Shown: positions 4,250-19,895 of the stretch, piece after piece | Layout: the number at the start of each line of letters is the position of its first letter | How positions within the stretch are numbered: position 1 is the first letter of the stretch | DNA from: Gemmatimonadota bacterium | GTDB taxonomy: Bacteria > Gemmatimonadota > Gemmatimonadetes > Gemmatimonadales > GWC2-71-9 | Direction of reading: 5' to 3' | Length of the DNA: 33,288 nucleotides | NCBI GenBank assembly: GCA_003222235.1 | Contig: QHVD01000193.1 | Coordinates: 1-33,288 of the forward strand | The notes under the pieces: generated by a model | Databases searched by the model: none | Seen by the model: the letters and a program-made list of their open reading frames with translations, nothing else | What the model was told of the DNA's origin: nothing | Position numbers and translations under genes: made by a program

Positions 4250-5339
4250 GCCGCCGCCTCGATCCCCGTCCGCTCAAGCAGGGCGCACCGCCGACGGACC
4301 AGGGCCACGGCCCGTGCGCGGTCCGACGCCGCAGCATGCACCGTGCATACCGGCTCCCCGGGAGCCACCCACGTTCCCGGGTGGGGGAGGTCGCGGCACC
4401 AGCGCGGAAAGCGGAACGCGGCAGTCACATGCCCGCCGGCGGGCGCGTACACGACCGCGTGCGCTCGCACGGCCCGCGGACGCGCTGTGCGATCGGGAAG
4501 CTCGCCCTCGCAAGCGCGCAGATGCCAGTCGAACAGACCCTGCGGGTAATCCGGATCGTAGAGCTCAACCGTGGCGGTCGGACGGGGGTTCACCTCGAGG
4601 GCGAGCCAGCGACGCCCGCGGAGTAGAAAGTCCAGGCCGTTCAATCCCACCAGCCCCGTGGCGGCCACGAGGGCGTCGAGCTTGGCCCGGAGCTCGGATT
4701 CCACCACCGCCGGCAGCGCTACCCCGCCGACGGCGCCGCCGTACAAGAACGGCAGATCGCGTCGCACGGACGCGGTCCACTGCTCATTGAAGCCGATGAC
4801 CGAGGCACGTCGGCCATCGGCGAGGAACAGCGCAGAGAGGCTGCGGCCATCCGGCGCACATGGGCGCCTCCCGCACCTCCGGGGTGCTTTACCAGCCAAC
4901 CGGCGGGGGCAAGGCGGGCGGGGCGGGCTTGGGGGGGAGGGGGGGCCGTGAAACGCGTCTCGGGATAGCGGATGCCCAAGCGATCGAGCAGGGGAAGGAA
5001 GCGTCGCACATCCTTCACGGCGGCAACTACCGAAGGCTCGTTGCCGTAGAGCCGCCGCCCGCGAGCGAGCCGCCCCAGCAAGCCGGTCCGGCCCTCGAAG
5101 CCGGAGCCGTAGACGAGGCCCGCACAGCGGCCCCAGGGCGCAAGCTCCGCCGCCGCTGCGAGCAGCGCGCGCGTGTCGAATCGCAGTCCCTGTCTCGCCA
5201 CCACAGAGCGGCACCGGCGCGCGAGCCCGCGGGTATCCCGATCCGCGAAACAGTCGAGCACGACCACGGGAATCCCGCTCCGCGCCGCCGACGCCGCGAG
5301 CGCGCGGCCCGTTACCGCAGCGATGAGAAAGGGCTCCAT
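4246..5339 (-). pseudogene. Third ATP-grasp ligase of the island, reading frame interrupted near 4845-4860
   Basis: The N-terminal part, in the frame of ORF 4719..5432, runs from ATG 5339 (MEPFLIAAVTGRALA...WLVKHPGGAGGAHVRR). The C-terminal part, in the frame of ORF 4246..5622, reads DGRSLSALFLADGRRASVIGFNEQW...LDFLLRGRRWLALEVNPRPTAT. The span is 1094 nt, i.e. 3n+2. Confidence 0.6.
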
Positions 5340-5482
5340 GGCGGTGCCGGTCAAACATACGCACCGAGATATCCTTGTCCATGATTCGACCGCGCGCATT
5401 GCCCGTACGTATTCTCGCCGACTTCTCATCACGCATTGCCATATGGGCGGATGGCCACATCTTAGCAGGGTAGAGGAGACTC

Positions 5483-5788
5483 ATGCCGACCATCGTAACG
5501 GGCAACTGCGAGAGATGCCGCTTCACCGACTGCGTGGCCGTGTGCCCCGTCGCGTGCTTCCACGGCGACGACCAGATGCTGTACATCGACAACAACGTCT
5601 GCATCGACTGCGGCGCCTGCATTCCGACCTGTCCGGTGCAGGCGATCTACGAGGAGGCCGACCTGCCGGGCGAGTTGCGGGTCTGGATCGCCATCAACGC
5701 GGAGCGCGCTCCCAATCTCCCGAGCATCACCGAGAAACAGGAGCCGCTGCCGGGGGCGGAGGCGCGCAAAGCCGACCTGGGGTTCTGA
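5483..5788 (+). CDS. fdxA: 7Fe ferredoxin ([3Fe-4S][4Fe-4S], Azotobacter FdI type)
   Basis: 101 aa. Contains [14 protein letters not shown] and [12 protein letters not shown] cysteine motifs. GAGGAG sits 5 nt upstream of the ATG. Confidence 0.85.
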
Positions 5789-5792
5789 TCGG

Positions 5793-7217
5793 ATGAGCGC
5801 CGGCTCGGAGCAGCATCCCCTCAGGGTCGCCATCGTGGGCTCCGGGCCGAGCGGGTTCTACGCCGCGGAAGGCCTGCTCAAATCGGGACGGATGGTTCGC
5901 CTCGACATGTTCGAGCGACTGCCGGCCCCCTTCGGCCTGGTGCGCCACGGGGTGGCCCCCGACCATCCCAAGCTCAAAGAGCCGATCCGCATCTACGACC
6001 GGATCGCCCGCGTCCCCGAGTTCAGGCTCCTCGGCAACGTCACAGTGGGCCGCGACGTGAGCGTCGAGGAGCTGAGAGCGGCTTACCACGCCGTGCTGTT
6101 CTGCTGCGGGGCCGAGAGCGATCGCCGGCTGGGCATCCCCGGCGAGGACCTGCCGGGAAGCCACACGGCGACCGAGTTCGTCGGCTGGTACAACGCGCAC
6201 CCCGACTACCGGGACCGCGAGTTCGATCTCAGCCAGGAAGTGGCTGTCATCATCGGCCAGGGGAACGTCGCCATAGACGTGTGCCGGATCCTGGCGAAGA
6301 CGGTAGACGAGCTCAAGCATACCGACATCGCCGCGCACGCCCTCGAGTGTCTCGCCGCGAGCCGGATCCGGGAGATCCACCTGATCGGACGCCGGGGGCC
6401 CGCGCAGGCCAAGTTCACGACTAAAGAGTTCCGGGAGCTCGGCGAGCTGGCAGACTGCGACCCCGTGGTCGATCCGGCGGACCTGGAGCTCAATACCGAG
6501 AGCCTGGCCGAGCTCGAGGACCGGGCCGGCTCGGTCGCCAAGAAGAACCTGGAGGTGCTCAAAGGGTTCGCCAGCCGGCCCGCCCGCCCAACCCGCCGGC
6601 GGGTGTTCCTGCGGTTCCTACTGAGCCCGGTGGAACTCCTTGACGACGGCGGGGGCGGGGGCGGCGGGGGGCGCCTGGAGCAGGTGGTGTTGGAACGGAA
6701 CCGGCTCGAGGGTGGTCCGTTCCGGCAGACCGCGCGCGCGACGGGGGAACGGCTGACGCTGGCGTGTGGGCTGCTGTTTCGCAGCATCGGGTACAAGGGC
6801 GTCGCCATTCCGGGAGTGCCGTTCGATCCGCGCCAGGGCGTCTTCCCTTCGCGGGACGGCCGCATCGTGGACGAGGCTGGCGCCGTGATCCCGGGGCTGT
6901 ACGCCGCGGGGTGGATCAAGCGCGGCCCCACCGGGATCATCGGCACCAACCGGGCGGACAGCATGGCAACCGTGAATTCGCTGCTCGCCGACCTTCCCAC
7001 CCTGGACACCGGCCCAAAGCTCGGGGCGGAGGGGCTGGCAGGCCTCCGGCCCGGGCAGGGACCGCGGGTGGTGAGCTACGCCGACTGGCTCGTCATCGAC
7101 GGGGCGGAGGTGCAGCGCGGAGCGTCCAAGGGCAAGCCGCGGGAGAAGTTCACTCGCGTCGCGGAGATGCTGCGGCTGCTGGACCGCCCCTTTCGTGAGA
7201 AGCCGACAGAGCCATAA
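5793..7217 (+). CDS. fprA: FprA / adrenodoxin-reductase-type NADPH:ferredoxin oxidoreductase
   Basis: 474 aa. Has [14 protein letters not shown] (FAD site), [31 protein letters not shown] (NADP site) and [14 protein letters not shown]. Close in pattern to mycobacterial FprA. The start is 4 nt after the fdxA stop. Confidence 0.85.
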
Positions 7218-7234
7218 CTAGCTATACTTCGCCA

Positions 7235-7594
7235 ATGGCGGAGATTATGACGTTGATCGGAGGGCGCTCCAGCAAGCAGGGCACGACGCTGTGCGCCAGC
7301 AAGCTGGGGGCGGCGTACGCCGAGATCTCCTCGACCCTGGAGATGAACGTCGAGGACATGGCGCGCCTGGGACTCAGCAACAACAGCAAGGTGAGATTGC
7401 GCACGCCGGCGGGCGAGGCCATCCTGCGATGCAAGGGTCGGGAGACGAAGGATCTGCCGCCCGGAATTCTGTTCATGACGTACGGACCGCTGTCGAGCCA
7501 ACTGATGGCGGGTGACACAGCCGGCAGCGGCATGCCGATTTCCAAGAATCTGGACGTCGAGGTCGAGCCAGTCCGGGACGAGAACGGGCCTTGA
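7235..7594 (+). CDS. fwdD: Formylmethanofuran dehydrogenase subunit D (small molybdopterin-dinucleotide-binding beta-barrel)
   Basis: 119 aa. Contains LIGGRSSKQG..EMNVEDMARLGL..KVRLRT..GILFMTYGP..AGSGMP, the FwdD/FmdD pattern. Sits immediately upstream of fwdB. Confidence 0.75.
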   Translation: MAEIMTLIGGRSSKQGTTLCASKLGAAYAEISSTLEMNVEDMARLGLSNNSKVRLRTPAGEAILRCKGRETKDLPPGILFMTYGPLSSQLMAGDTAGSGMPISKNLDVEVEPVRDENGP

Positions 7595-7607
7595 GGAGGG
7601 TCGGGTG

Positions 7608-8954
7608 ATGGGCGAGAACCTGAAGGTCGTCCGGGACGCCACCTGCACGTTCTGCGGGTGCGTGTGCGACGACATGCACCTCACGGTGGACCTCGATCAG
7701 AAGCGCATCATGAAGGCCGAGAACGCCTGCATCCTTGGCAAGGCGTGGTTCAGGGAGCATGGTATCGAGGAGCGTCCGCTCGCGCTCATCGGCGGCCGCA
7801 CGGCGACCACCGAAGAAGCGGTCGAGGCGGCTGCGCAGATCCTGGCCCAGGCGCGCTTCCCTCTGATCTACGGGCTGTCCGACACGACGTGCGAGGCTCA
7901 GCGGGTGGCGGTCGCGATCGCCGACATGATCGGGGGGACGGTGGACACGACGACCTCCGTCTGCCATGGCCCGTCGGGGATCGCTTTCGAGGGCGTGGGC
8001 GAGAGCACCGCCTCCCTGGGCGAGATCAAGAACCGGGCCGACCTCGTCGTGTTCTGGGGCGGCAACCCGGCGGAGGCGCACCCCAGGCTCTTCTCGCGCT
8101 ACGCGGTGACCCCCAAGGGCATGTTCATCCCCAACGGGCGGAAAGACCGCACCGTCGTGCTCGTGGACGTGCGGCGTACTCCCAGCACTCCTGCGGCCGA
8201 CATCTTCATCCAGGTGAAGCCGCGCAGCGATTTCGAGGTGCTGTGGGCGTTGCGCGCTCTGGTCAAGGGACGCAAGGTCGATCCCTCGATCGAGCGGCGG
8301 ACGGGCGTGTCCCTCGCGGTCCTGGAGGATCTGGTCGCCCGCATGAAGAGCTGCCGTTTCGGGGTTTTCCTGTTCGGGATGGGGCTCACGATGAACCGGG
8401 GCCGGCACTTCAATTCGGGCGCGTTGCTGGCGCTCGCCACCGATCTCAACGAGTTCACCCACTGGGTGGCGAAGCCGGTCCGCGGCCACGGCAACGTGAC
8501 CGGCGCGGACAACGTCGTGTCCTGGCAGACCGGATTCCCGTTCGGCGTCAACTTCAGCCGCGGCTATCCCCGCTTCAATCCTGGTGAGTTCACCTCGGTG
8601 GACCTGCTCACCCGGCGCGAGGCCGATGCGGCCTTGATCATCGCGAGCGACCCTGCCGACAATTTCCCCAAGGCGGCGATCGAGCATCTGCGGCGCATTC
8701 CCGTGATCACACTGGATCCCAAGGCCACGCCGACGACGCAATTGGCGCAGGTGGCGTTCACGACCGCCACCTACGGGATCAACGTGTCGGGAACCGTCTA
8801 CCGCATGGACGACGTGCCGATCACGCTGCGTCCCGCCTTCGAGTCCCCGTACCCGAGCGACGAGCAGGTGCTGACCGCCATTCGCGACCGGGTGCGCGCG
8901 CTGCTGGGAGGAAACCGGCTGCCGGCGGGCGCCCCGGTCGCCGCCGCCTCGTAG
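7608..8954 (+). CDS. fwdB: Formylmethanofuran dehydrogenase subunit B, archaeal-type (FeS and Mo/W-pterin motifs retained)
   Basis: ATG 7608 is preceded by GAGGAGGG. Motifs present: CTFCGCVCDD..NAC, TSVCHGPS, GEIKNRADLVVFWGGNPAEAHPR, PVRGHGNVTG, RFNPGE, EADAALIIASDP and GTVYRMDDVPI. ORF-track entry 7512..8954. Confidence 0.85.
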   Translation: MGENLKVVRDATCTFCGCVCDDMHLTVDLDQKRIMKAENACILGKAWFREHGIEERPLALIGGRTATTEEAVEAAAQILAQARFPLIYGLSDTTCEAQRVAVAIADMIGGTVDTTTSVCHGPSGIAFEGVGESTASLGEIKNRADLVVFWGGNPAEAHPRLFSRYAVTPKGMFIPNGRKDRTVVLVDVRRTPSTPAADIFIQVKPRSDFEVLWALRALVKGRKVDPSIERRTGVSLAVLEDLVARMKSCRFGVFLFGMGLTMNRGRHFNSGALLALATDLNEFTHWVAKPVRGHGNVTGADNVVSWQTGFPFGVNFSRGYPRFNPGEFTSVDLLTRREADAALIIASDPADNFPKAAIEHLRRIPVITLDPKATPTTQLAQVAFTTATYGINVSGTVYRMDDVPITLRPAFESPYPSDEQVLTAIRDRVRALLGGNRLPAGAPVAAAS

Positions 8955-8979
8955 AGCCTGGCGTCCCCGGAGGAATACC

Positions 8980-10671
8980 GTGGGATCGCCGCTGCGCATC
9001 GTCAACGGTCGGGTATACGACCCCGCCAACGGCGTCAACGGCGCGGTGCAGGATGTGTGCGTCCGCGACGGGAAGATCGTGGCCGACGTGCCACCCGACG
9101 CGAAGCGCATCGACGCGGCCGGCATGGTGGTGATGCCGGGCGGCATCGACATCCACTGCCACATCGCCGGCCCGAAGGTCAACCTCGCCCGCAAGGTGCA
9201 GCCCGAGACCCACCAGGACGACGTGCAGCTCCGCACCCGGCTCACCCGATCGGGCACCGGCGGCACGGTTCCCTCCACGTTCGCGACGGGCTATCGCTAT
9301 GCGACGCTCGGCTACACGACCGCCATGGAAGCGGCCGTGACGCCTCTCGGAGCGCGGCACACGCTGGAGGAATTCCACGACACGCCCGTCCTCGACAAGG
9401 GCTTTTTCGTGCTGGTGGGCAACAACCTGCTGCTCTACCGGCTGCTCCAGGAGGGACGGCGCGAGGAGCTCCGGCACGCGCTCGCCTGGTGGCTGAAGGT
9501 GACCAAGGCGTATGCCCCGAAGCTCGTGAATCCCGGGGGGGACGAGATGTGGAAGGGCCAGCGCAACGCCAACATCACCAGCCTCGACGACAAGATCGGG
9601 TCCTTCGACCTCACCCCGCGCCGGGTGATCGCCGCGTTCATCGAGGCCGGGAACGAGCTGGGGCTCCCGCACCCCGTGCACATCCACTGCAACAACCTCG
9701 GCCACTCGGGGAACGTCGAAACGACGCTCGAGACGATGCGGCTCGCCGAAGGGCGGCGGGCGCACATCGCGCACATTCAGTTCCACAGCTACGGCGCCGC
9801 CGCCGGCAAGAGCCAGAGCAACCCGACGTCGCGCGCGCGGGACATCATCGAGTACATCAACACGCACCCCAACATCAGCGCCGATGTCGGCGCGGTGATG
9901 TTCGGGCCCGCCACCATCATGACCGGGGACGCCCCGCTCGCCTACATGCTGCGCCGCTTCGGAGGCAACAAGTGGGTGAACGCCGACACGGAAAACGAGA
10001 GCGGGTGCGGCATCGTCCCCTTCAGATACCAGGATCGGGTATACACGAACGCCCTGCAGTGGGCCATCGGGCTCGAACTGCTGCTGCTCTCCGAAGACCC
10101 CTGGCGCATGGTGTTCTCCACCGATCACCCGAACGGCGGGTCGTTCATGAGCTACCCGCGGCTCATTCGCCTGCTGATGGACCGCGGGTACCGCAAGGAG
10201 CAGATGGCCCACGTGAACCAGAAGGCGCTCGACCGGAGCGCCCTGCGCGACTGCCAGGAGCGGGAGTACTCGCTGTCGGAGATCGCGATCATCACGCGCG
10301 CCGGGCCGGCCCGACTGCTCGGGCTCACCGACAAAGGGCACCTCGGGGTCGGGGCGGACGCCGACGTGACGATCTACGAGGAGGATGAGGACAAGGAGAA
10401 GATGTTCTCGGCGCCGCGGTACGTGATCAAGGACGGCGAGCTCATCATCGAAGACCACGAGCTGCGCGCGGACCACCAGGGGCGCCTCCTGCACGTCGCG
10501 CCGGATTACGATCCCCAAATCGAGCAGGTGATCGAGCCGTTCTTCGAGGACTTCTACACCATCCGGTTTGCGAACTATCCGGTGGACGACCGCTACGTGC
10601 CCAATGGCCAGATCATCCCCACGACGCCATCGGTGGCGGCCGCCCCCGCGACCGCCGGCACACGGACGTGA
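8980..10671 (+). CDS. fwdA: Formylmethanofuran dehydrogenase subunit A (amidohydrolase; FwdA/FhcA)
   Basis: 563 aa with a GTG start after GGAGGA. Has the PGGIDIHCHIAGP metal-binding HxH motif, with FwdA/FhcA-like sequence throughout. Confidence 0.9.
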   Translation: MGSPLRIVNGRVYDPANGVNGAVQDVCVRDGKIVADVPPDAKRIDAAGMVVMPGGIDIHCHIAGPKVNLARKVQPETHQDDVQLRTRLTRSGTGGTVPSTFATGYRYATLGYTTAMEAAVTPLGARHTLEEFHDTPVLDKGFFVLVGNNLLLYRLLQEGRREELRHALAWWLKVTKAYAPKLVNPGGDEMWKGQRNANITSLDDKIGSFDLTPRRVIAAFIEAGNELGLPHPVHIHCNNLGHSGNVETTLETMRLAEGRRAHIAHIQFHSYGAAAGKSQSNPTSRARDIIEYINTHPNISADVGAVMFGPATIMTGDAPLAYMLRRFGGNKWVNADTENESGCGIVPFRYQDRVYTNALQWAIGLELLLLSEDPWRMVFSTDHPNGGSFMSYPRLIRLLMDRGYRKEQMAHVNQKALDRSALRDCQEREYSLSEIAIITRAGPARLLGLTDKGHLGVGADADVTIYEEDEDKEKMFSAPRYVIKDGELIIEDHELRADHQGRLLHVAPDYDPQIEQVIEPFFEDFYTIRFANYPVDDRYVPNGQIIPTTPSVAAAPATAGTRT

Positions 10672-11498
10672 CCCTCACCTTGACCCTGCGTACCGCACCC
10701 ACGGTACCGCTCGAGGCAGATGTCTTGAGTCCGGACCGTCTGTCCGGCGTGTCGGCGCTCGAGGCCGCGAAGCTCACCGTCGTCCACGGCAACCAGCGCG
10801 CCGACCTGGGCGAGTTCTTCCAGGTCGGGGGCGCCGCCGACGGTGAGCTCCACCTCACGGGCGACCTGGCCCAGGTGAAACAGATCGGCACGGGCATGGC
10901 ACGGGGCCGGATCGTGGTGCACGGATCCGTGGGCATGCACCTCGGCGCGGGCATGACCGGCGGGGAGATCGTCGTGGAGGGCGACGCCGGCGACTGGGTG
11001 GGCCCGGAAATGTCGGGAGGACGGATCGTCGTCAAGGGGAACGCCGGTCACATGCTCGGCAGCGCCCGCCGCGGCAGCCAGATCGGCGTGCGCGGCGGGG
11101 AGATCGTCGTATTCGGGAACGCGGGCAACGAGGTCGGCAACGGCATGCGCCGCGGGCTGATCGCGATCGGCGGCGACGCCGGCGACTTTGCGGGGGTGAA
11201 CATGCTCGCGGGGACCATCGTGGTGCTCGGACGCCTTGCGTGGAGGGCCGGCGCGGGGATGAGGCGCGGCTCGATCATCTCCATGCATCCCGCAGAACTG
11301 CTGCCCACGTTCAGCTACGCCTGCGACTACGCCCCCGAGTTCCTGCGTGTCTGCCTGCGCCACGTACGCGGGCTGGGCCTGACCATCGCCGACTCGCACG
11401 TGAACGGCCGGTACCAGCGCTGGTGCGGCGACGGAATCGAGCTGAACCGGGGCGAGGTGCTGATCCTCGATTCCGCGGGGACCGCGTCGCGGAGCTGA
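10668..11498 (+). CDS. fwdC: Formylmethanofuran dehydrogenase subunit C (FwdC/FhcC, GXGXG-repeat beta-helix)
   Basis: 276 aa. Shows repeated G.MxgGxIvVxGnaG units. The start overlaps the fwdA stop (GTGA). Confidence 0.9.
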   Translation: MTLTLTLRTAPTVPLEADVLSPDRLSGVSALEAAKLTVVHGNQRADLGEFFQVGGAADGELHLTGDLAQVKQIGTGMARGRIVVHGSVGMHLGAGMTGGEIVVEGDAGDWVGPEMSGGRIVVKGNAGHMLGSARRGSQIGVRGGEIVVFGNAGNEVGNGMRRGLIAIGGDAGDFAGVNMLAGTIVVLGRLAWRAGAGMRRGSIISMHPAELLPTFSYACDYAPEFLRVCLRHVRGLGLTIADSHVNGRYQRWCGDGIELNRGEVLILDSAGTASRS

Positions 11499-11556
11499 CG
11501 CGACGCCGCCAGCGCCCCGGAGAATTGGCTCTCGTCCGAGGACGGAGGGGTTGACG

Positions 11557-12465
11557 ATGCTTGTGCGCGGCGTGCTCATCGAAGACACGTTCGCCGAGGC
11601 GTTCACCATGCGCGTGGCGCGGCTCGTCATCACGGGCGGCACGCCGCGCTGGGCGCGAGAGGCGGGGCTCAAGCTGACCGGCTTCGCGACTTCGGTGATC
11701 GGGTGCAAATGCGAGGCGGGGATCGAGCGCGAGCTCTCCGAGACCGAAACGCCCGACGGGCGGCCGGGGGTGAGCGTGCTGTTCCTGACGATGGACAAGG
11801 AGAGCCTCCCACAACAGCTGATCTCGCGGATCGGCCAGACGGTGCTGACCTGCCCCACGACGGCGTGCTTCGACGGGCTCCCGGACGGACCCGACCGGCT
11901 GCCGGTGGGCAAGGCGCTGCGGGTGTTCGGCGACGGGTTCCAGGGGAGCAAGGTGATCGGCGGCAAGCGGTACTGGCGGGTGCCGGTGATGGAGGGGGAG
12001 TTCCTGGTGGAGGAGACGTTCGGCATGCAGAAGGGGGTGGGCGGCGGGAACTTCCTGATCCTCGCCCGGGATGCCGATGCTGCGCTCGCGGCGGCCGAGG
12101 CCGCGGTCGACGCGATGGCCAACCACCCGGGCGTGGTCCTCCCGTTTCCCGGCGGCGTGGTGCGGAGCGGTAGCAAGGTGGGCTCGAAGCGCTACAAGAA
12201 AATGGTCGCGACGACGAACGACGCCTTCTGCCCCACGCTCCGGGCGCTCACCGAATCCCAGCTTCCCGAGGGCGTGAACAGCGTGCTCGAGATCGTGCTC
12301 GATGGGACCGACGCCCCCGCGATCGCAGCGGCGATGCGGTTGGGAATCGACGCCGCCTGCCGGCCGGGCGTGCAGGCGATCACGGCCGGCAACTACGGCG
12401 GCAAGCTCGGGCCGCATCACTTTCACCTGCGCCGCATCATGGGAGGCGAGTCGCAGGCCGCGTGA
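11557..12465 (+). CDS. ftr: Formylmethanofuran:tetrahydromethanopterin N-formyltransferase (Ftr/FhcD)
   Basis: ATG 11557 lies 6 nt after GGAGGGG; the ORF track opens at TTG 11551. Contains IEDTFAEAF..RLVITG..TGFATSVIGC..E, a typical Ftr N-terminus. Confidence 0.9.
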   Translation: MLVRGVLIEDTFAEAFTMRVARLVITGGTPRWAREAGLKLTGFATSVIGCKCEAGIERELSETETPDGRPGVSVLFLTMDKESLPQQLISRIGQTVLTCPTTACFDGLPDGPDRLPVGKALRVFGDGFQGSKVIGGKRYWRVPVMEGEFLVEETFGMQKGVGGGNFLILARDADAALAAAEAAVDAMANHPGVVLPFPGGVVRSGSKVGSKRYKKMVATTNDAFCPTLRALTESQLPEGVNSVLEIVLDGTDAPAIAAAMRLGIDAACRPGVQAITAGNYGGKLGPHHFHLRRIMGGESQAA

Positions 12466-13448
12466 GTGACGTCCTCGGTGGGATGCGCCGCGTGCCGCTG
12501 GGCGTCAATGACCGCGCCTGGGAGATTGCGGACATCATGGTGGCGAACGCGGACGCGATGCGGGTCGCGTCACGCACCCTGGGGAACGGCGCGCGCGTGA
12601 TCGACGCCGGCATCAATGCGCCCGGGGGCTACGCGGCTGGCGCGGCCATCGCCGAGATGTGCATGGGAGGGCTCGGGGACGTGGACTACGCCCCGGTGCC
12701 GATCGGCGGGGAGACCTGGCCTGGCGTGCGGGTATGGACCGATCACCCGGCCGTGAGCTGTATGGCGTCGCAGTACGCCGGCTGGACGATCCAGGTGGGA
12801 AAATACTTCGCCATGGGCTCGGGACCGCTGCGCGCCCATGCCCGGGTGGAGAAGGAGCTGTTCGAGAAGTTGGGCTATGCCGAGACGGCCCGGCGCGGGG
12901 TGCTGGTGCTCGAGACCCGCAACCCGGCGACCGAGGAGGTGGCGGCCTGGGTGGCGCAGAAGGCGGGACTCGCTCCCGACCGGCTCACGTTCGTCGTGGC
13001 GCCGACGGCGAGCCTCGCCGGCGGAGTACAGATCGCCGCGCGGATTCTCGAGACGGGGCTCCACAAGATGGACGCGCTGGGCTTCGACCTGAAGAAGGTC
13101 GTGAGCGGCATCGGGACCGCTCCGCTCCCCCCGGTCGCGAAGAACGACTTGCGGGGCATCGGCCGCACCAACGACTGCATCCTCTACGGGGGACAGGCCC
13201 GCTACACGGTGCACGCCGACGACGCCGAGCTCGCCGAGCTCGTGCCGAAGATCCCGGCCGCGGCCTCAAAGGACTATGGCACCCCGTTCTACGAAATCTT
13301 CAAACGCTACGGCGGCGACTTTTACAAGATCGACCCGCTGCTCTTCAGCCCCGCCGAGGTGTGGCTGACGAGCGTGGAGAGCGGCAAGACGTACCACGCG
13401 GGGTATCTGAACCCCGAGGTGCTGCACGCGTCGCTGCTCGAGACCTGA
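12462..13448 (+). CDS. mch: Methenyl-tetrahydromethanopterin cyclohydrolase
   Basis: 328 aa. Contains SCMASQYAGW and YFAMGSGP signatures. GTGA overlap with ftr. Confidence 0.9.
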   Translation: MSDVLGGMRRVPLGVNDRAWEIADIMVANADAMRVASRTLGNGARVIDAGINAPGGYAAGAAIAEMCMGGLGDVDYAPVPIGGETWPGVRVWTDHPAVSCMASQYAGWTIQVGKYFAMGSGPLRAHARVEKELFEKLGYAETARRGVLVLETRNPATEEVAAWVAQKAGLAPDRLTFVVAPTASLAGGVQIAARILETGLHKMDALGFDLKKVVSGIGTAPLPPVAKNDLRGIGRTNDCILYGGQARYTVHADDAELAELVPKIPAAASKDYGTPFYEIFKRYGGDFYKIDPLLFSPAEVWLTSVESGKTYHAGYLNPEVLHASLLET

Positions 13449-13462
13449 GGCCCCCCCGCGCC

Positions 13463-14467
13463 ATGGCCAACCAGTCCACGGACCCTGCAGGAAGCAACCT
13501 CGATCGACGTCGCGGCGTCGATCGTCGAGCACCTCATCCGGCGGTTGGCGCCGACGTGAGTGCGCCGGCGGCGGAGCCCGCCCGGTCGGGGCTCGCTCCG
13601 GCGGCCGACGTGGCCGCGGCCGCCCAGCTGGCCTGCCTGCTCGAAGCGACCGCCCCCAAGCCCGGCAACGTCTCGCCTACGGCCTCGTTTCACGACGCGA
13701 CCTACGGGGACTTCCTGGCGAGCGCCGTGGCGATCGGTCCGGCGCTCGCCGCCGCCGGCGAGCGGCCGCTCGGTGCCACGATCTACGCCGCCGTCGAGGC
13801 CACCACCCGGTGGACGCGCTCCAACACGAACCTGGGCCTCGTGTTGCTACTCGCGCCCCTGGCCCGGGCCGCCCTCAGGCCCGGGTCCGCACCGCTCAGA
13901 GCCAAGCTTGCCGCCACGCTCGCCGAGACCACCGTAGCGGATGCGCGCGATGCCTACGCCGCGATCCGGCTTGCCGCGCCGGGAGGGCTGGGACGCGCTC
14001 CCGAGCAGGATGTCGCCCATACCCCCACGGTGCCCCTGGGCGCGACGATGGCGCTCGCCGCGGAGCGCGACGCGATCGCGCGCGAGTACGTCACCGAATT
14101 CCGGGCCACGTTCGAGGTCGGGGTCGCCGCGCTCCGCCACGCGCTCGGCAGCGGCCTGGGCTGGCCGGAGGCGACGGTTGAGGCGTACCTCGCGCTGCTC
14201 GCCGCGGCACCCGACACGCACATCGCCCGCAAGCTCGGCGCCGCCGAAGCCGCCGCCGTGCAGCGCCGGGCGCAAGAGGTGCTCGCGGCCGGAGGGGTCC
14301 GCACCCCGGCAGGGCGCGACGCGATCACGGCGCTCGACCGCGAGCTGCGCCACGAGCGTAACCGGCGGAATCCCGGCGCGACGGCGGATCTCACGGGAGC
14401 GGCGATCTGCGTCGTGTTACTGGAAGGCGGCTGGCGGCGCGGTGGAGGGACTGATGGCAGCGCGTAA
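13463..14467 (+). CDS. Triphosphoribosyl-dephospho-CoA synthase (CitG)-like protein of H4MPT islands (orf7-like)
   Basis: Contains LEATAPKPGNVSP, TNLGLVLLLAPLA and NPGATADL motifs of the CitG/MdcB family. The start is uncertain: ATG 13463, or GTG 13556 which gives a more typical length of about 303 aa. Confidence 0.75.
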   Translation: MANQSTDPAGSNLDRRRGVDRRAPHPAVGADVSAPAAEPARSGLAPAADVAAAAQLACLLEATAPKPGNVSPTASFHDATYGDFLASAVAIGPALAAAGERPLGATIYAAVEATTRWTRSNTNLGLVLLLAPLARAALRPGSAPLRAKLAATLAETTVADARDAYAAIRLAAPGGLGRAPEQDVAHTPTVPLGATMALAAERDAIAREYVTEFRATFEVGVAALRHALGSGLGWPEATVEAYLALLAAAPDTHIARKLGAAEAAAVQRRAQEVLAAGGVRTPAGRDAITALDRELRHERNRRNPGATADLTGAAICVVLLEGGWRRGGGTDGSA

Positions 14468-14957
14468 GCAGTTCAAGATCGCCGTCGCGAAAGACAACCT
14501 CGTGTTCGCGTCGGCCCACTTCATCACGTTCTCCGGGCACCGCTGCGAGACGCTGCACGGCCACAACTACCGCACGCGCGTCGTCGTGGAGGGCGGCCTC
14601 GATCCCGAGGCCCACTTCGTGCTCGACTTCTCCGAGGTAAAACAGATCACGAAGCGCCTGACGGATGAGGTCGACCACAAGGTGCTCCTCCCGCTCCAGA
14701 ACCCAAAGATCGAGATTCGGGAGGAAGGCGACACGGTGACGGTCGCCGTGGGCGGGAAGCCGCGCTACGTGTTCCCGAAGGGTGATTGCGCGCTTCTGCC
14801 CATCCCGAACACGACGGTGGAGATGCTGGCGGAGTATCTCGCGGGACGGGTCGCGAGGGCGCTCGCGTCGTCGGAGGGGGTCGACTTGCGGGCGATCGAA
14901 GTCGAGGTCGAGGAGAACTTCGGCCAATCCGCGACCTACCGCGAGTCGCTGGAGTGA
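14454..14957 (+). CDS. 6-pyruvoyl-tetrahydropterin synthase (PTPS/QueD)-related protein
   Basis: 167 aa. Has FASAHFITFSGHRCETLHGHNY, the Cys plus His zinc/catalytic pattern of the PTPS family. ATG 14454 overlaps the end of the preceding gene. Confidence 0.8.
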   Translation: MAARKQFKIAVAKDNLVFASAHFITFSGHRCETLHGHNYRTRVVVEGGLDPEAHFVLDFSEVKQITKRLTDEVDHKVLLPLQNPKIEIREEGDTVTVAVGGKPRYVFPKGDCALLPIPNTTVEMLAEYLAGRVARALASSEGVDLRAIEVEVEENFGQSATYRESLE

Positions 14958-15694
14958 CGTTCCCGCGCCTCGATGTCGGCCCTGCCCAGCCCGGCGTCGT
15001 GCAGCGCGGTCGCCACCAGAGCGCCGTCACACCCGGCGTCCGCGAGGCCCACAAGATCGCGCCGAGAGCGGACGCCGCCCCCCGCGAGCAGCTCGACCTC
15101 GGGATGCGCCTCTCGGAGCGCTCCCAGGAGCGGGAGATCGAGGCCGAGACCCGTGCCGACGCGGGCGAGATCGATCACGAGGATCGCGCCCGCGCCCGCA
15201 TCGATGGCGGCCCGCACGAGCTCGAGCGGCGTTCCGCCGTGCGGCGCACCGGGAAGCACGATGGGCTCGCCGCCGCGGAGATCGAGGCTGAAGACGATCC
15301 GCTCCCGGCCGACCGAGGTCGCGATGTCACGCAGCGCATCGAAGGAGGACAGCGTCTCGAGCCCGACGACGACGCGCTCGGCGCCGTGCGTCAACACGTC
15401 ATGCGCCCGCCGCGGAGTCGTCACCGCCGCATCCACCAGCAACCGGCCGCCGGCCACGGCGAGGGCATCGAGCAGTGCCTGCTGCGGCGCGCCGCCGGCG
15501 ATGGCATCGAGATCGGCCACATACCACTCGTCGCGGCCCAGCCGGTCGCGGAATGCGCCCGCGAGTGCGAGCGCATCCCCCGCCCGCTCCTCGGGCAACA
15601 GCACCGAGTGTACGGGAGCGTAGCCCTCCCGCCGACCGCCCTCCGCGCGCACCGCACGGCCGGCCATGAGGTCGAGGACCGGAATCACGCGCAT
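14936..15694 (-). CDS. HisA/HisF-family TIM-barrel protein (H4MPT/MFR-island type)
   Basis: 252 aa. Starts MRVIPVLDLMAGRAV and has a C-terminal GGGVRS..D..L...G.DGALVATALH phosphate-binding motif. Its 3' end overlaps the convergent PTPS-like gene by 22 nt. Confidence 0.75.
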   Translation of the reverse strand: MRVIPVLDLMAGRAVRAEGGRREGYAPVHSVLLPEERAGDALALAGAFRDRLGRDEWYVADLDAIAGGAPQQALLDALAVAGGRLLVDAAVTTPRRAHDVLTHGAERVVVGLETLSSFDALRDIATSVGRERIVFSLDLRGGEPIVLPGAPHGGTPLELVRAAIDAGAGAILVIDLARVGTGLGLDLPLLGALREAHPEVELLAGGGVRSRRDLVGLADAGCDGALVATALHDAGLGRADIEARERHSSDSR

Positions 15695-15890: not shown

Positions 15891-16511
15891 ATGAACCCCG
15901 ACTCCGGCGTCGTCCGGACGGTCGTAAAGGTTGGCGGCGGCCTGCTGAGCCGCGCCGGCGCCTTCGACCGGGTCACCGAGGCGCTGACCGCCTTCACGCG
16001 GGGCCGCCGGGTGCTGATCGTCCCAGGTGGCGGCCCATTCGCCGACGCGGTGCGGCAGATGTTCAAGCGCATCAAGATCGGCGAGGACGCGGCGCACTGG
16101 ATGGCGGTGCTCAGCATGGACCAGTACGCCCACGCCCTGGCCGCCCGCATCCCAGGGGCGGTCCTGCTCCACGAGCAAGCGGACATCGCGGCGACCATCG
16201 CTGCCGGGCGACTGCCGGTGCTCGCGCCCTACCGCTGGCTCGAGTTGGCCGACCCGCTCCCCCATTCCTGGGAGGTCACGAGCGACAGCATTGCCGCCTG
16301 GGTGGCCGGCGCGCTCGCTGCCCGCCGGCTGGTGCTGATCAAGCCCGCCCGCGGCGACACGAAGCAGCTCGTGGACCCGCTGTTCCTGCGCACCCTGCCG
16401 GCGACCGTCGAGCACGTGATCATAACCGCCGACGATCTCGGGCAACTGGACGTGGCGTTAGACGAAGGCGGTGGATTGAGCCGCGGACGCAGGGTCCGCC
16501 AGGGCCCGTAA
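15891..16511 (+). CDS. Amino-acid-kinase-fold protein (aspartate/glutamate/uridylate kinase family; orf20-like, candidate kinase in MFR or H4MPT biosynthesis)
   Basis: 206 aa with VVKVGGGLL and LIVPGGGPFAD motifs. The last ~18 codons overlap the convergent mfnB gene and look non-conserved. Confidence 0.65.
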   Translation: MNPDSGVVRTVVKVGGGLLSRAGAFDRVTEALTAFTRGRRVLIVPGGGPFADAVRQMFKRIKIGEDAAHWMAVLSMDQYAHALAARIPGAVLLHEQADIAATIAAGRLPVLAPYRWLELADPLPHSWEVTSDSIAAWVAGALAARRLVLIKPARGDTKQLVDPLFLRTLPATVEHVIITADDLGQLDVALDEGGGLSRGRRVRQGP

Positions 16512-17177
16512 CCGGGCGACGCGGGCGCGCTGGATCCGCCCCGTCCGCCCACCGACGCACGCTGCGCCCCGCACCCCCACGATGTCGGCGCCGAGCTCCC
16601 GTGCGGTGGCGAAGTCCGTGCCCTGGAGGCTGCCCGCGAGCGCGGCAAACACGCCGGCCGCGTGCGCGGCAGCGACCCACAGGCCCACGGTGCCCGGCGG
16701 GAGCAAGTCGAACAAGGCCCGGTCTTTGAAGGCTGTGTCGAGCAGCGCGCCGGTCGCGCCCGTTTCTCGAGCCACGGCGACCAGCGCCCCGGGCGGGAGG
16801 GCCCGCGCGCGCCGCCAGTCAGCGTAGGCGACCAGCACCACGCCCGTCCCGGCCCCCGCCCCGCGACGCACCGCGGCGGCTAGCCGGCGCGCCGATGGTG
16901 CGGACGCGACGCCCGGGAACCCGACCTTCACGAACGCCGCGCCCAGGCCCGCGGCGAGGTGCGCCGCAGTTTCGACGGCACGCTCGGTCGCGCAGTCGCC
17001 GAGCGCCGCGCTGACCGGCCGGCGGACGCCCACGGCGCTCCGGATCGCACGCAACACGTCCGGCGCCACGGCGCCGAGTGCGCCGTGCCGCGGCTCTTTC
17101 GCGTCTATGATGTCGGCGCCGCCAGCGAGCGCGGCGCGCGCTTCGGCCGCATCGGCGACGCTCACGAGCAGACGCAT
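16458..17177 (-). CDS. mfnB: (5-formylfuran-3-yl)methyl phosphate synthase (MfnB, DUF556)
   Basis: 239 aa. Starts MRLLVSVADAAEARAALAGGADIIDAKEP..GALGA, followed by a KVG lysine region, matching the MfnB pattern. Confidence 0.8.
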   Translation of the reverse strand: MRLLVSVADAAEARAALAGGADIIDAKEPRHGALGAVAPDVLRAIRSAVGVRRPVSAALGDCATERAVETAAHLAAGLGAAFVKVGFPGVASAPSARRLAAAVRRGAGAGTGVVLVAYADWRRARALPPGALVAVARETGATGALLDTAFKDRALFDLLPPGTVGLWVAAAHAAGVFAALAGSLQGTDFATARELGADIVGVRGAACVGGRTGRIQRARVARLRALADPASAAQSTAFV

Positions 17178-17238: not shown

Positions 17239-18066
17239 ATGTCAAAACGACAGCTGGAGGAGGAGGCGCAGACGGCGGTCCACGGCGCAGAGGACGTCGC
17301 CGCGAGCCCGACGCTCGCCGGGAAGGTCGTGCTGGTGACCGGCGCGTCGAGCGGCATCGGCCGGGCTATCGCGCTCGCCTGCGCGGAGGCGGGCGCCGAT
17401 GTGACGGTGACGTATCGGACGCGCCAGCAGGGCGCCACGGCGTTGGCAGGCGCGATTCAGCAACTCGGCCGGCGCGCGCACGTGGTGCAGGCCGACACCG
17501 CCGAGCCGCAAGACGTCGAACGGCTCGCGCGCGACGCCCGCGTCGCGTTCGGTCGCGTGGACGCCTGGATCAACAACGCCGGCGCCGACATCCTGACGGG
17601 GAGCACGGCGAGCCGCTCGCGCCTCGAGAAGCTCGACCTGCTCCTCGCCGTGGACCTCCGGGGCACGATCCTCGCCTCATGGGCGGCGGTCGAACTGATG
17701 CGGGAGCAGCCGGTGGGCGGCGTGATAATCAACATGTCGTGGGACCATGTCCTGGTGGGCGGCATGAAGGGAGAGTACGCCCAGGTGTTTTGCGCGGCCA
17801 AGGGCGGCGTATACAGCTTCAGCCGCGCGCTGGCGCGCTCGGTCGCCCCGCACATCCGTGTGAACGTGCTCGGCCCCGGCTGGGTCGAGACGGCATACGG
17901 CAGCGCGCTGGACTCCGAGGTAAAGCGGCGCATCACCGAGACCATTCCGTTGGGTCGCTGGGCGACTCCCGAGGACGTCGCGCATGCGGCGGTCTACCTG
18001 GCCTCGGACGCGGCTTCGTACATCACCGGGCAGATGTTGATGGTCAACGGGGGGAGCGTGGTTTAG
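17239..18066 (+). CDS. Short-chain dehydrogenase/reductase (SDR) with a non-classical active-site spacing
   Basis: 275 aa with the VLVTGASSGIGRAIA Rossmann motif and NNAG. The active-site region reads NMSW...GEYAQVFCAAKGG, which is Y-x7-K, with Phe where YxxxK would place the Tyr. Confidence 0.8.
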   Translation: MSKRQLEEEAQTAVHGAEDVAASPTLAGKVVLVTGASSGIGRAIALACAEAGADVTVTYRTRQQGATALAGAIQQLGRRAHVVQADTAEPQDVERLARDARVAFGRVDAWINNAGADILTGSTASRSRLEKLDLLLAVDLRGTILASWAAVELMREQPVGGVIINMSWDHVLVGGMKGEYAQVFCAAKGGVYSFSRALARSVAPHIRVNVLGPGWVETAYGSALDSEVKRRITETIPLGRWATPEDVAHAAVYLASDAASYITGQMLMVNGGSVV

Positions 18067-18090
18067 GCTCTCCAAAACAGGAGACGACTG

Positions 18091-18450
18091 ATGGCTGGCA
18101 CAGAACCCACGTATAGCGACGCGCAGATCGAAGAAAAGCTCAAGGAATTTCCGGGCTGGTGGTACGAGGATGGATGGATCCGCCGCAACTACAAGACGGA
18201 CGGGTGGCCGACCACCCTGATGCTGGTGAACGCCATCGGGTACCTCGCCGAGGCCGCCTACCATCACCCGGATCTCGCGGTGACGTGGGGCCGCGTCATC
18301 GTGAAGCTCAAGAACCACGCCGCCGGCGGCGTCACCGACAAAGACTTCGAGCTGGCACGGAAGATCGAGGAGCTGGTGCTGTGGCGGCCGAAGGGCGGCG
18401 CACTCGAGGGGACGCCCAACAAGTTCGTGCGCTCCGGCGACCCCCGGTGA
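18091..18450 (+). CDS. Pterin-4a-carbinolamine dehydratase (PCD/DCoH family)
   Basis: 119 aa. EAAYHHPDLAVTWGRVIVKLKNHAAGGVTDKD fits the catalytic pattern E-x3-H-H-P-x5-W-x9-H-x8-D. AGGAG lies upstream of the ATG. Confidence 0.85.
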   Translation: MAGTEPTYSDAQIEEKLKEFPGWWYEDGWIRRNYKTDGWPTTLMLVNAIGYLAEAAYHHPDLAVTWGRVIVKLKNHAAGGVTDKDFELARKIEELVLWRPKGGALEGTPNKFVRSGDPR

Positions 18451-19895
18451 CGGTGGAGCCGGCGGCGGAGCGCGAGCCCCGGCGGGTCCTGTTCGTCACG
18501 GGAAAGCTCGCCGAGCCGGCGCTCCGCCGCACGCTCGCCGAGATGGCGCCGGCCTTCAGCTGCGACGTGGCGGTCATGAAGATCACCGTGGCCGCCCTGA
18601 TGACCACTCCCTGGATCGCGCGGTTCCTGGATGTGCCCGCCGGCGCCGATCTCGTTCTGATCCCTGGACTGAGCGAGGGCGATCCCGCGGTGATCGCAGA
18701 GAAGGTCGGTGTGCGGGTCGAGAAGGGCCCCAAGGACCTGCGCGAGATCCCCGAGTACTTCGGGCGCGCGGCGACCATGCGGGCGTACGGGGCGTACGAC
18801 ATCGAGATCGTGGCCGAGGTGAACAACGCGCCCCGGCTCCCGCGCGACGCGCTGCGCCGCGAGGCCGAGTATTACCGCGCGAGCGGCGCGGACGTGATCG
18901 ACATCGGATGCACCCCGGGGCGCGCGTTCCCCGCCCTCGCCGAAGTCGTGCGCGAGTTGCTCGCCTCGGGGATGCGGGTGAGCATCGACTCCTTCGAGCC
19001 CGCCGAGATCCGAGCGGCCGTGGGGGCGGGCGCCGAGCTCGTGCTGAGCGTCAACGGCTCGAACCTCGCCGTGGCGCGAGACCTCGCCGGCACGCGGGCC
19101 CGCGTCGTGGCGATCCCCGACTTCGGCCAGGGGATCGAGACGCTCGAGCCGACCATCAGCGCGCTCGAGCGCTGGGGCGTGCCCTACCTGATCGACCCCG
19201 TCATCGAGCCGGTCGGGTACGGCTTCATGGCGTCGCTCGAGCGCTTCGCCGAGGCGCGCCGGCGTTACCCCGACGCCCCGCTGTTCATGGGGATCGGCAA
19301 CATCACCGAACTGACCGCGGCCGACACGACGGGGGTGAACGCCCTGCTCGTGGCCATCTGCCAGGAAATCGGTGTTCGGGCAGTGCTCACCACGGAGGTC
19401 ATCCCCTGGGCCCGGGGGGCGGTGCGCGAAGTGGACATCGCCCGCCGGCTGATGCATCACGCGGTGACGCGCAAAACGCTTCCCAAGGGCATCGACGACC
19501 GGCTCGTCACGCTCAAGGACCCGCAGATCCTCGCCTACACCGAAACGGAGCTGCGCGAGCTGCAGCGGGCCGTCACCGACCCGAACTTTCGCATCTTCAC
19601 CGACCGGGACGCGATCACGGTGTTCAACCACGAGCGCTTCGTGCGCGGCACGGAGCTCCACGAGATCTTCGCGCAGCTGGGCGTGGACGAGCCGACTCAC
19701 GCGTTCTACCTCGGCCGCGAGCTGATGAAGGCGAAGCTCGCCGTCACTCTCGGCAAGACCTACCGGCAGGAGGGCGCGCTGCAGTGGGGCTACCTCTCGC
19801 CCCCGGACGACCGCGGGCCGGAGCACGTGCGCCTCACCCAGCGCTCGGCCCGCTCGCGGGGGGGGGCCCGCCGCAAGGCGAAGGACGGCGCGTGA
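18447..19895 (+). CDS. Dihydropteroate-synthase-like protein of the H4MPT pathway (MptH-like pterin-binding barrel with N- and C-terminal extra domains)
   Basis: GTG 18447 overlaps the PCD stop (GTGA). Contains GADVIDIGC, SIDSF and MGIGNITELT pterin-binding-domain motifs, followed by a C-terminal extension. Confidence 0.8.
   Translation: MTVEPAAEREPRRVLFVTGKLAEPALRRTLAEMAPAFSCDVAVMKITVAALMTTPWIARFLDVPAGADLVLIPGLSEGDPAVIAEKVGVRVEKGPKDLREIPEYFGRAATMRAYGAYDIEIVAEVNNAPRLPRDALRREAEYYRASGADVIDIGCTPGRAFPALAEVVRELLASGMRVSIDSFEPAEIRAAVGAGAELVLSVNGSNLAVARDLAGTRARVVAIPDFGQGIETLEPTISALERWGVPYLIDPVIEPVGYGFMASLERFAEARRRYPDAPLFMGIGNITELTAADTTGVNALLVAICQEIGVRAVLTTEVIPWARGAVREVDIARRLMHHAVTRKTLPKGIDDRLVTLKDPQILAYTETELRELQRAVTDPNFRIFTDRDAITVFNHERFVRGTELHEIFAQLGVDEPTHAFYLGRELMKAKLAVTLGKTYRQEGALQWGYLSPPDDRGPEHVRLTQRSARSRGGARRKAKDGA

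Follow-up and report, generated by a model that had tools for sequence, protein, structure and literature searches.

A putative redox-active formylmethanofuran dehydrogenase operon with a ferredoxin/FprA module in a Gemmatimonadota bacterium

The locus and its genes

In the textbook view of bacterial methylotrophy, the tetrahydromethanopterin (H4MPT) pathway ends with the formyltransferase/hydrolase complex (Fhc), a cofactor-less hydrolase that releases formate, and Methylorubrum extorquens is the model for this step. The present analysis concerns an operon in a 33,288-nucleotide stretch of DNA from a soil Gemmatimonadota bacterium (Gemmatimonadales; GenBank assembly GCA_003222235.1, contig QHVD01000193.1), hereafter called the window. 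The operon consists of eight co-directional genes, fdxA-fprA-fwdD-fwdB-fwdA-fwdC-ftr-mch, and appears to encode a bacterial redox-active formyl-methanofuran (or formyl-methylofuran) dehydrogenase that would pass electrons to a ferredoxin and then to NADP+, a reading we favor with moderate confidence.

Gaps between neighboring genes range from -4 to 52 nt, and the genes are called an operon because of these short gaps only; a promoter and terminator scan of positions 4900-15200 gave no signal above shuffled expectation. An original prediction, which dealt with fwdD and fwdB, had placed fwdD-B-A-C ahead of ftr. This gene order is confirmed, with mch as the next gene. The features of the operon, with the matches that identify them, are as follows.

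5483-5788 (+): fdxA, 7Fe ([3Fe-4S][4Fe-4S]) ferredoxin of the Azotobacter FdI type, proposed to take electrons from FwdB (Pfam Fer4 families and DUF3470; FdI match)
5793-7217 (+): fprA, FAD-dependent NADPH:ferredoxin reductase of the adrenodoxin-reductase type, proposed to pass electrons from ferredoxin to NADP+ (1lqt and 1cjc matches)
7235-7594 (+): fwdD, domain-IV cap subunit of the Mo/W-bis-pterin site (PF01568; archaeal FwdD structures)
7608-8954 (+): fwdB, catalytic subunit with predicted Mo/W-bis-pterin and [4Fe-4S] sites, 448 aa (8rja_B, 5t5i_B, TIGR03129)
7644-7730 (+): in fwdB, [4Fe-4S] ligand cysteines Cys13, Cys16 and Cys20 (in CTFCGCVCDD, 7644-7673) and Cys41 (in NAC, 7722-7730) (alignment with M. 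wolfeii FwdB)
7953-7976 (+): in fwdB, TSVCHGPS, with Cys119-His120 as metal-ligand Cys and catalytic His (same alignment)
8475-8504 (+): in fwdB, PVRGHGNVTG, with Arg292 as the equivalent of catalytic Arg288 (same alignment)
8980-10671 (+): fwdA, binuclear-metal amidohydrolase, site of formyl-methanofuran hydrolysis or synthesis (TIGR03121, 8rja_A)
10668-11498 (+): fwdC, beta-helix scaffold with an Fhc-type C-terminal segment (TIGR03122; FhcC alignment)
11551-12465 (+): ftr/fhcD, formylmethanofuran:H4MPT formyltransferase (PF01913, PF02741, NF002554)
12462-13448 (+): mch, methenyl-H4MPT cyclohydrolase, last gene of the putative operon, with a 4-nt overlap with ftr (PF02289 at 1.6e-123)

Residues and subunits of the complex

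The open reading frame (ORF) listing opens fwdB within fwdD, at a GTG at position 7512; the likelier start is the ATG at 7608 (or a GTG at 7605). This ATG lies 13 nt past the fwdD stop and is preceded by a Shine-Dalgarno sequence, GAGGAGGG. GC content at third codon positions of fwdB is 0.89, and GC by codon position fits a real gene in a 70% GC genome. FwdB matched the whole length of the solved archaeal chains 8rja_B (2.4e-118) and 5t5i_B (3.8e-111) and scored 501 bits on TIGR03129 (cutoff 328), while M. extorquens FhcB (6s6y_B) was matched at 6.7e-14 over partial length. By these scores, the match to archaeal FwdB is far above chance.

Every FwdB motif quoted in the original prediction was located, including RFNPGE (8571-8588), GEIKNRADLVVFWGGNPAEAHPR (8019-8087), and EADAALIIASDP (8619-8654) in addition to those listed above. 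It had proposed that the four N-terminal cysteines form a [4Fe-4S] site and that TSVCHGPS holds the Cys-His pair of the Mo/W ligand. In a MAFFT alignment, these residues do align with the archaeal catalytic residues: Cys13/16/20/41 match the M. wolfeii FeS ligands Cys9/12/16/35, Cys119-His120 match Cys118-His119, and Arg292 matches Arg288. Cys18 is an additional cysteine outside the ligand positions. Among the window FwdB and 120 close homologues, the FeS ligand cysteines are conserved in 116-121 of the 121 sequences, and the Cys-His pair and the Arg are invariant in the 120 homologues. In eleven related loci, which come from Gemmatimonadota, Alpha-, Beta-, and Gammaproteobacteria, and Chloroflexota, FwdB likewise shows no variation in the FeS cysteines, Cys-His, or Arg. 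Such invariance across homologues and three phyla indicates selection on the redox site. The full residue set is kept in only 17 of approximately 130 full-length representatives of the family's 50%-identity clusters, most of which are degenerate at Cys-His; retention of the set is therefore informative and not the default. FwdB thus keeps every residue that defines a working archaeal FwdB, and it is apparently metal-dependent (Mo or W) and redox-competent.

FwdD is encoded by a 119-aa ORF directly ahead of fwdB, and its earlier description as FwdD-like holds: the ORF matches PF01568 (Molydop_binding) at 1e-11, and its matches to archaeal FwdD structures range from 3.8e-12 to 6.5e-8 (8rja_D at 3.8e-12, 5t5i_D at 6.5e-9). 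In related loci, fwdD adjoins fwdB in 77 of 80. Together with the residues described above and the identity of FwdB to archaeal enzymes (43% to M. wolfeii FwdB and 46% to the 8rja enzyme, versus 25-28% to canonical FhcB of cultured Azospirillum and Paraburkholderia), this supports the central claim of the original prediction, that the window encodes an archaeal-style, apparently redox-competent FwdD-FwdB and not FhcB.

The remaining subunits resemble both archaeal Fwd and bacterial Fhc. FwdA scored 694 bits on TIGR03121, and it matched archaeal 8rja_A (3e-148, 498 bits) better than FhcA 6s6y_A (3.7e-114, 386 bits). It keeps the HxH amidohydrolase motif (His59-x-His61). FwdC scored 261 bits on TIGR03122; alignments with archaeal FwdC end at about residue 218, while alignment with M. 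extorquens FhcC extends to residue 266 (FhcC residues up to 262) and covers the two-helix segment at FhcC residues 216-246. In Fhc, this C-terminal helix-loop-helix segment docks FhcD, in place of an archaeal beta-hairpin (Hemmann et al., 2019; PMC6926001). A single-sequence AlphaFold2 model of FwdC placed helices at 213-218 and 222-235, with a mean predicted local distance difference test (pLDDT) score of 55 and a C-terminal segment below 50, and it was not used as evidence. Ftr scored 441 bits on NF002554, with archaeal Ftr and FhcD matches both near 1e-92. Because ftr lies in the operon and FwdC has an Fhc-type C-terminus, Ftr may be part of the complex, as in Fhc. As judged from its subunits, the complex seems to be a hybrid of archaeal Fwd and bacterial Fhc, or a form between the two.

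Distribution, the FdxA/FprA pair and degenerate relatives

FwdB of the window type is represented by >6000 protein clusters of 90% identity at E <= 1e-100, and it matched at least 573 stretches in GTDB contigs sampled at one genome per species. The best 80 of these at least 573 stretches form our locus survey. All 80 are from metagenome-assembled genomes (MAGs), with identities of 72-98% across phyla, and they include many Gemmatimonadales, USC-gamma ("Chromatiales bacterium USCg_Taylor"), Ca. Methylophosphatis, Ca. Oxydemutatoraceae, Burkholderiales, Alphaproteobacteria, Caldilineaceae, and Ardenticatenia. Neither the named members of two top-120 homologue lists nor the best 80 loci include a cultured organism with the window type; named matches of the second homologue search, which started from a gammaproteobacterial member, were again MAGs only. 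A PLSDB protein search returned canonical FhcB and unrelated formate dehydrogenases only, and no cultured window-type carrier. In a neighbor-joining (NJ) tree of FwdB and FhcB, canonical FhcB and the window type fall into two separate clades, each monophyletic with 100% bootstrap. This clade support, combined with 72-98% identity across phyla, fits horizontal spread under strong constraint.

More distant relatives vary in composition. A second bacterial lineage with intact FwdD-FwdB (P0279) is 49% identical, and its locus holds an MtdB-type Mpt_N protein and Mch. A PF02441 flavoprotein gene lies directly after fwdA in the P0279 locus (L083:11043-11630) and may encode another redox partner or an Afp-type dihydromethanopterin reductase. 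Planctomycete-type relatives are orphan genes that are degenerate at Cys-His and have no fwdD; among the ten nearest 50%-cluster representatives, one is named, and it belongs to Pirellulales. FwdD-FwdB fusions are apparent in P0121, P0122, P0127, P0133, P0145, P0164, and P0255, which have 570-606 aa and an N-terminal extension of approximately 140-165 residues. The Molydop_binding domain was confirmed for P0122 only (L087:6001-7821), and at least this representative has Gly at the catalytic Cys. In a Caldilineaceae MAG, approximately 4 kb between fwdB and fwdA (L039:9344-13407) encode a DUF11 protein, two unknown proteins, and a VIT1-family iron/manganese transporter.

A candidate electron-transfer pair is encoded immediately ahead of fwdD. 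FdxA matches A. vinelandii FdI at 2e-27 and conserves each of the nine Cys positions, and it matches the NCBIfam model FdxA_Protbact at 4.9e-32 with 110 bits, which is under the model's 135-bit cutoff. FprA matches M. tuberculosis FprA (1lqt) at 2.9e-118 over its full length and adrenodoxin reductase (1cjc) at 3e-109. The fdxA gene is 4 nt upstream of fprA, which ends 17 nt ahead of fwdD. FprA has a run of eight glycines (6648-6671 in the window), a low-complexity insertion in a surface region, and the homologue in locus L010 has no such run there.

Linkage of the pair to the fwd cluster was surveyed by tblastn in the 80 loci, 43 of which had enough flanking sequence to be informative. The pair lies beside the fwd cluster on the same strand in 35 of these 43 loci (14 upstream and 21 downstream). 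It is upstream of fwdD in Gemmatimonadales and Betaproteobacteria and downstream of fwdC in Gamma- and Alphaproteobacteria. That the linkage survives this switch of side is good evidence for a functional tie between FdxA/FprA and the fwd cluster. Neither the pair nor fwdD is present in the canonical Fhc loci of Azospirillum and Paraburkholderia.

FhcB differs from FwdB by several losses: the N-terminal [4Fe-4S] domain, Cys118 (Ser62 in FhcB), His119, Arg288, and the FwdD cap (Hemmann et al., 2019; PMC6926001). The background that the original prediction gave for M. extorquens FhcB is correct according to the same paper, but it had been generalized too far. Canonical FhcB of Azospirillum oryzae (L082:5956-7308) and Paraburkholderia caribensis (L081:~6001-7269) keep the four FeS cysteines and have lost Cys-His and Arg288 (with Gly at the Arg position); M. 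extorquens FhcB, without its FeS domain, is therefore an extreme case and not the rule. Most representatives of the family's 50%-identity clusters likewise keep the FeS cysteines and have lost Cys-His and Arg288.

At least four related loci (L004, L018, L088, and L089) have an fwdD-B-A-ftr-C cluster beside a second set, fhcB'-fhcA'-ftr', which includes fhcC' in two of them. The positions of this set are:

L004:12874-16680; L018:3584-7431; L088:17358-21368; L089:5127-6832 and 17726-20672: second, degenerate Fhc-type set

The fprA gene accompanies the fwd cluster in L004, L088, and L089, with fdxA detected in L088 and L089; neither gene is in the fetched L018 region. The B subunit of the second set has 28-37% identity with FwdB of the window and keeps the FeS cysteines; it has no Cys-His, and no Arg in three of the four. 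Three of the four copies group with canonical FhcB at 100% bootstrap (NJ). The presence of both B forms side by side in one genome argues that they have different jobs. Within its 33 kb, the window has the intact set only.

Genes around the operon belong to a bacterial methylotrophy island. The window is uniform in composition at ~70% GC, and the best public match of its FwdB is a Gemmatimonadales MAG contig (L001, 98% identity). It also carries yidC, mnmE, and genes for a pyrroloquinoline quinone (PQQ) methanol dehydrogenase (XoxF/MxaF-type) and a cytochrome c. Contamination by archaeal DNA was considered and is ruled out by yidC, mnmE, the PQQ methanol dehydrogenase, and the uniform GC content. 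Genes for H4MPT and methanofuran/methylofuran are dense in the window: mch, ftr, and genes for CitG-like, PTPS, ATP-grasp/RimK ligase, MfnB, PabAB-like, DUF447, and GHMP-type synthase proteins. MfnB (4-HFC-P synthase, for the first step of the furan moiety of methanofuran/methylofuran) is encoded at 16458-17177 (-). A PabB/PabA-like aminodeoxychorismate synthase pair at 19895-21391 (+) and ~21394-22062 (+) presumably supplies p-aminobenzoate for H4MPT. From the polyglutamate ligase-like ATP-grasp/RimK genes and mfnB, the furan cofactor is probably methylofuran. The mnmE (trmE) gene is split over two frames at 29443-30237 and 30294-30782 (-): one ORF has the N-terminal domain, the second has the GTPase/helical part, and the frameshift between them reflects either an assembly error or a pseudogene. 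Downstream of the PQQ methanol dehydrogenase, the cytochrome c gene is followed and overlapped by an ORF at 26647-27834 (+) with pentapeptide repeats in its C-terminal part.

Proposed function and relation to known systems

We propose that host C1 units are probably oxidized straight to CO2 without formate release, by an enzyme that replaces the usual bacterial hydrolase or works alongside it. Ftr would transfer the formyl group from formyl-H4MPT to the furan cofactor (methylofuran), and FwdA would hydrolyze formyl-furan to formate within the complex. Formate would then move to the Mo/W center of FwdBD and be oxidized to CO2. The two electrons would travel via the [4Fe-4S] cluster of FwdB to FdxA, the 7Fe ferredoxin, from which FprA would hand them to NADP+. 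The net reaction would be formyl-H4MPT + NADP+ -> CO2 + H4MPT + NADPH, with no free formate. In relatives that have both sets, Fhc may provide formate (e.g., for assimilation), and the Fwd-type enzyme may serve dissimilation to CO2.

Redox potentials bear on the direction of this reaction. The [3Fe-4S] cluster of FdI has a potential of about -0.42 V, and that of NADP+ is -0.32 V. The CO2/formyl-methanofuran couple is near -0.53 V (PMC11656701), so the oxidative direction would be downhill. By the same potentials, the reverse direction would need energy input, and no gene for such input is present. The original prediction had also spoken of a "different energetic wiring" of C1 oxidation, a phrase that is overstated. 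The acceptor would differ and no free formate would be released, but the net reaction, formyl-methanofuran + NAD(P)+ -> CO2 + NAD(P)H, is that of Fhc plus formate dehydrogenase. The gain would lie in channeling, in the avoidance of free formate, and in NADPH or reduced ferredoxin as product, with the same energy yield.

Several observations weigh against our proposal. No genes for Mo/W cofactor biosynthesis or molybdate/tungstate transport are within the 33-kb window. Polyferredoxin genes (FwdF/FwdG) were found neither in the operon nor elsewhere in the window, where the 101-aa 7Fe ferredoxin is the only one encoded. FprA enzymes are best known in the NADPH-to-ferredoxin direction. Archaeal Fwd enzymes are oxygen-sensitive, and the hosts look aerobic, since the window encodes a PQQ methanol dehydrogenase and a cytochrome c. 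In the NJ tree, the window clade joins the archaeal clade with only 30% bootstrap, and therefore we make no claim on the donor lineage. The FdxA/FprA pair is missing near the cluster in 8 of the 43 informative loci, one of which (L010) has a frameshifted FprA copy near the fwd cluster. Loci without the adjacent pair include Chloroflexota loci and one Gemmatimonadales subgroup, and the P0279 lineage, with intact FwdDB, also has no such pair. The pair is thus not obligatory.

These last gaps bear on an alternative in which the enzyme is a redox-active formylmethanofuran dehydrogenase and FdxA/FprA are not its partners. Electrons would then go to another acceptor (a different ferredoxin, or a quinone-linked one), and the pair would have another role in the H4MPT/methylofuran island, for example in a reductive step of cofactor biosynthesis such as dihydromethanopterin reduction. 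In keeping with this, the island is rich in cofactor-biosynthesis genes, and the ferredoxin weakly matches (30 bits) the ferredoxin domain of the archaeal dihydromethanopterin reductase model TIGR02700. However, where the pair is present it directly adjoins the fwd genes on the same strand, on either side, while other island genes are shuffled, and canonical Fhc islands, whose cofactor needs are the same, do not have it. We consider this alternative unlikely.

The complex might instead work as Fhc, converting formyl-methylofuran to formate, with the cofactor motifs of FwdB and FwdD kept as a structural relic. The ftr gene in the cluster, the Fhc-like FwdC C-terminus, and the single gene set in the window are compatible with such a role, and homologous Gemmatimonadetes genes were earlier labeled "fhc" (Butterfield et al., 2016; PMC5103831). 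A relic is difficult to reconcile with conservation of Cys-His, Arg, the four FeS cysteines, and a separate FwdD throughout the clade, which covers at least 573 species-level genomes and three phyla with identities of 72-98%, whereas the same residues decay quickly wherever dehydrogenase function is known or presumed to be lost. Several genomes also hold a separate degenerate Fhc set alongside, and we judge the relic explanation improbable. Operation of the enzyme from CO2 to formyl-methylofuran for C1 assimilation, the reverse CO2 fixation that the original prediction had allowed for, is very improbable: Fwd enzymes are reversible in principle and M. tuberculosis FprA reduces ferredoxins with NADPH, but NADPH (-320 mV) and the FdI [3Fe-4S] cluster (~ -420 mV) of an NADPH-linked FprA/7Fe-ferredoxin partner are too positive for a -530 mV couple, the operon has no bifurcating or energy-coupled module, and the island, with its XoxF/MxaF-type methanol dehydrogenase and mch, is one of oxidative methylotrophy.

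An oxidative, redox-active Fwd would also have a place in the evolution of Fhc. In the route proposed by Hemmann et al. (2019; PMC6926001), Fwd became Fhc in three steps: the dehydrogenase was lost, FhcC recruited Ftr, and a methylofuran anchoring site was acquired. From its sequence, the window enzyme looks like one in which the second step, and perhaps the third, has been taken and the first has not. The complex would then represent a stage between archaeal Fwd and bacterial Fhc that preceded loss of the dehydrogenase. A broader proposal, which we offer as tentative, is that Ftr-FwdABCD with FdxA and FprA constitutes a very widespread system, known to date from uncultured bacteria only, that takes formyl-H4MPT to CO2 with NADP+. 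Such a system could run parallel to Fhc in the same cells, with a dissimilation/assimilation branch at formyl-methylofuran, and it might be both a surviving Fwd-Fhc intermediate and, given the aerobic look of its hosts, naturally oxygen-tolerant.

The exception to the M. extorquens model is a large environmental clade, which includes abundant soil Gemmatimonadales and the atmospheric-methane oxidizers of USC-gamma. If the enzyme is active, models of C1 flux would have to include a step directly from formyl to CO2, with NADPH or reduced ferredoxin as product, C1 oxidation in these organisms would require Mo or W, and the three-step path from Fwd to Fhc would gain a living intermediate. An aerobe's formylmethanofuran dehydrogenase would then also be of interest for enzymatic CO2 capture. 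The labels "fhc" and "formylmethanofuran dehydrogenase subunit B" (the latter being the automatic annotation of these proteins) mask two functionally different proteins, which can be separated by the Cys-His/Arg test and the presence of fwdD. The finding would surprise those who work from the M. extorquens model, and the hypothesis is directly testable.

Bacterial homologues of FwdB and FwdD have been noted before. The fwdD gene was reported in NC10, Firmicutes, and Synergistetes and stated to be absent from Proteobacteria and Planctomycetes (Chistoserdova, 2016; PMC5020050), whereas in the present analysis many MAGs of Gemmatimonadota, Chloroflexota, and Alpha-, Beta-, and Gammaproteobacteria carry it. 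An fwdDBA-ftr-fwdC cluster with Cys118 was described in Actinobacteria from the Hakuba serpentinite (Merino et al., 2020; PMC7325909), and 149 bacterial FwdB representatives were linked to inferred horizontal transfers from Archaea (Wells et al., 2023; PMC10100899). A 2024 review names only distant Fhc as a bacterial relative (PMC11656701). Our literature searches found no biochemical study of a bacterial formylmethanofuran dehydrogenase, and no description of the FdxA/FprA module, the side-by-side Fhc set, or the Fhc-type FwdC was found in the searchable literature. What appears to be new is a Fwd/Fhc hybrid with a different electron-transfer module.

Three known systems can be compared with the window operon. 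With archaeal FwdABCD(FG) (M. wolfeii 5T5I; 8RJA), it shares the A, B, C, and D subunits, the [4Fe-4S] cysteines, Cys-His and Arg288 of FwdB, the separate FwdD cap, and the HxH motif of FwdA. Unlike the archaeal systems, it belongs to a bacterial and apparently aerobic host, it has a 7Fe ferredoxin and an FprA-type reductase instead of FwdF/FwdG and no FwdE, its operon includes ftr, and its FwdC has an Fhc-type C-terminal segment. The closest solved relative, 8rja, is an archaeal formylmethanofuran dehydrogenase of an ethane-oxidizing consortium that operates oxidatively and has a reductase attached (PMC11656701). By analogy, the window enzyme would be expected to run oxidatively with a dedicated reductase.

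With FhcABCD of Methylorubrum extorquens (6S6Y), the window system shares its position at the end of the H4MPT route of formaldehyde oxidation, ftr/fhcD in the cluster, and the FhcC-like C-terminus. The fhcBADC order of M. extorquens is also the B-A-ftr-C order of the window's relatives, to which fwdD is added. Fhc of M. extorquens has no FeS domain, Cys118, His119, Arg288, or FwdD and releases formate (PMC6926001), whereas the window keeps these residues and FwdD. The third comparison is with M. tuberculosis FprA and its 7Fe ferredoxin and with A. vinelandii FdI, which have strong full-length homology to the window pair, with all ferredoxin cysteines conserved. In those systems, NADPH electrons go to P450s or the proteins have other roles; in the window, the pair lies inside a formylmethanofuran dehydrogenase operon, and the proposed flow of electrons would be the opposite.

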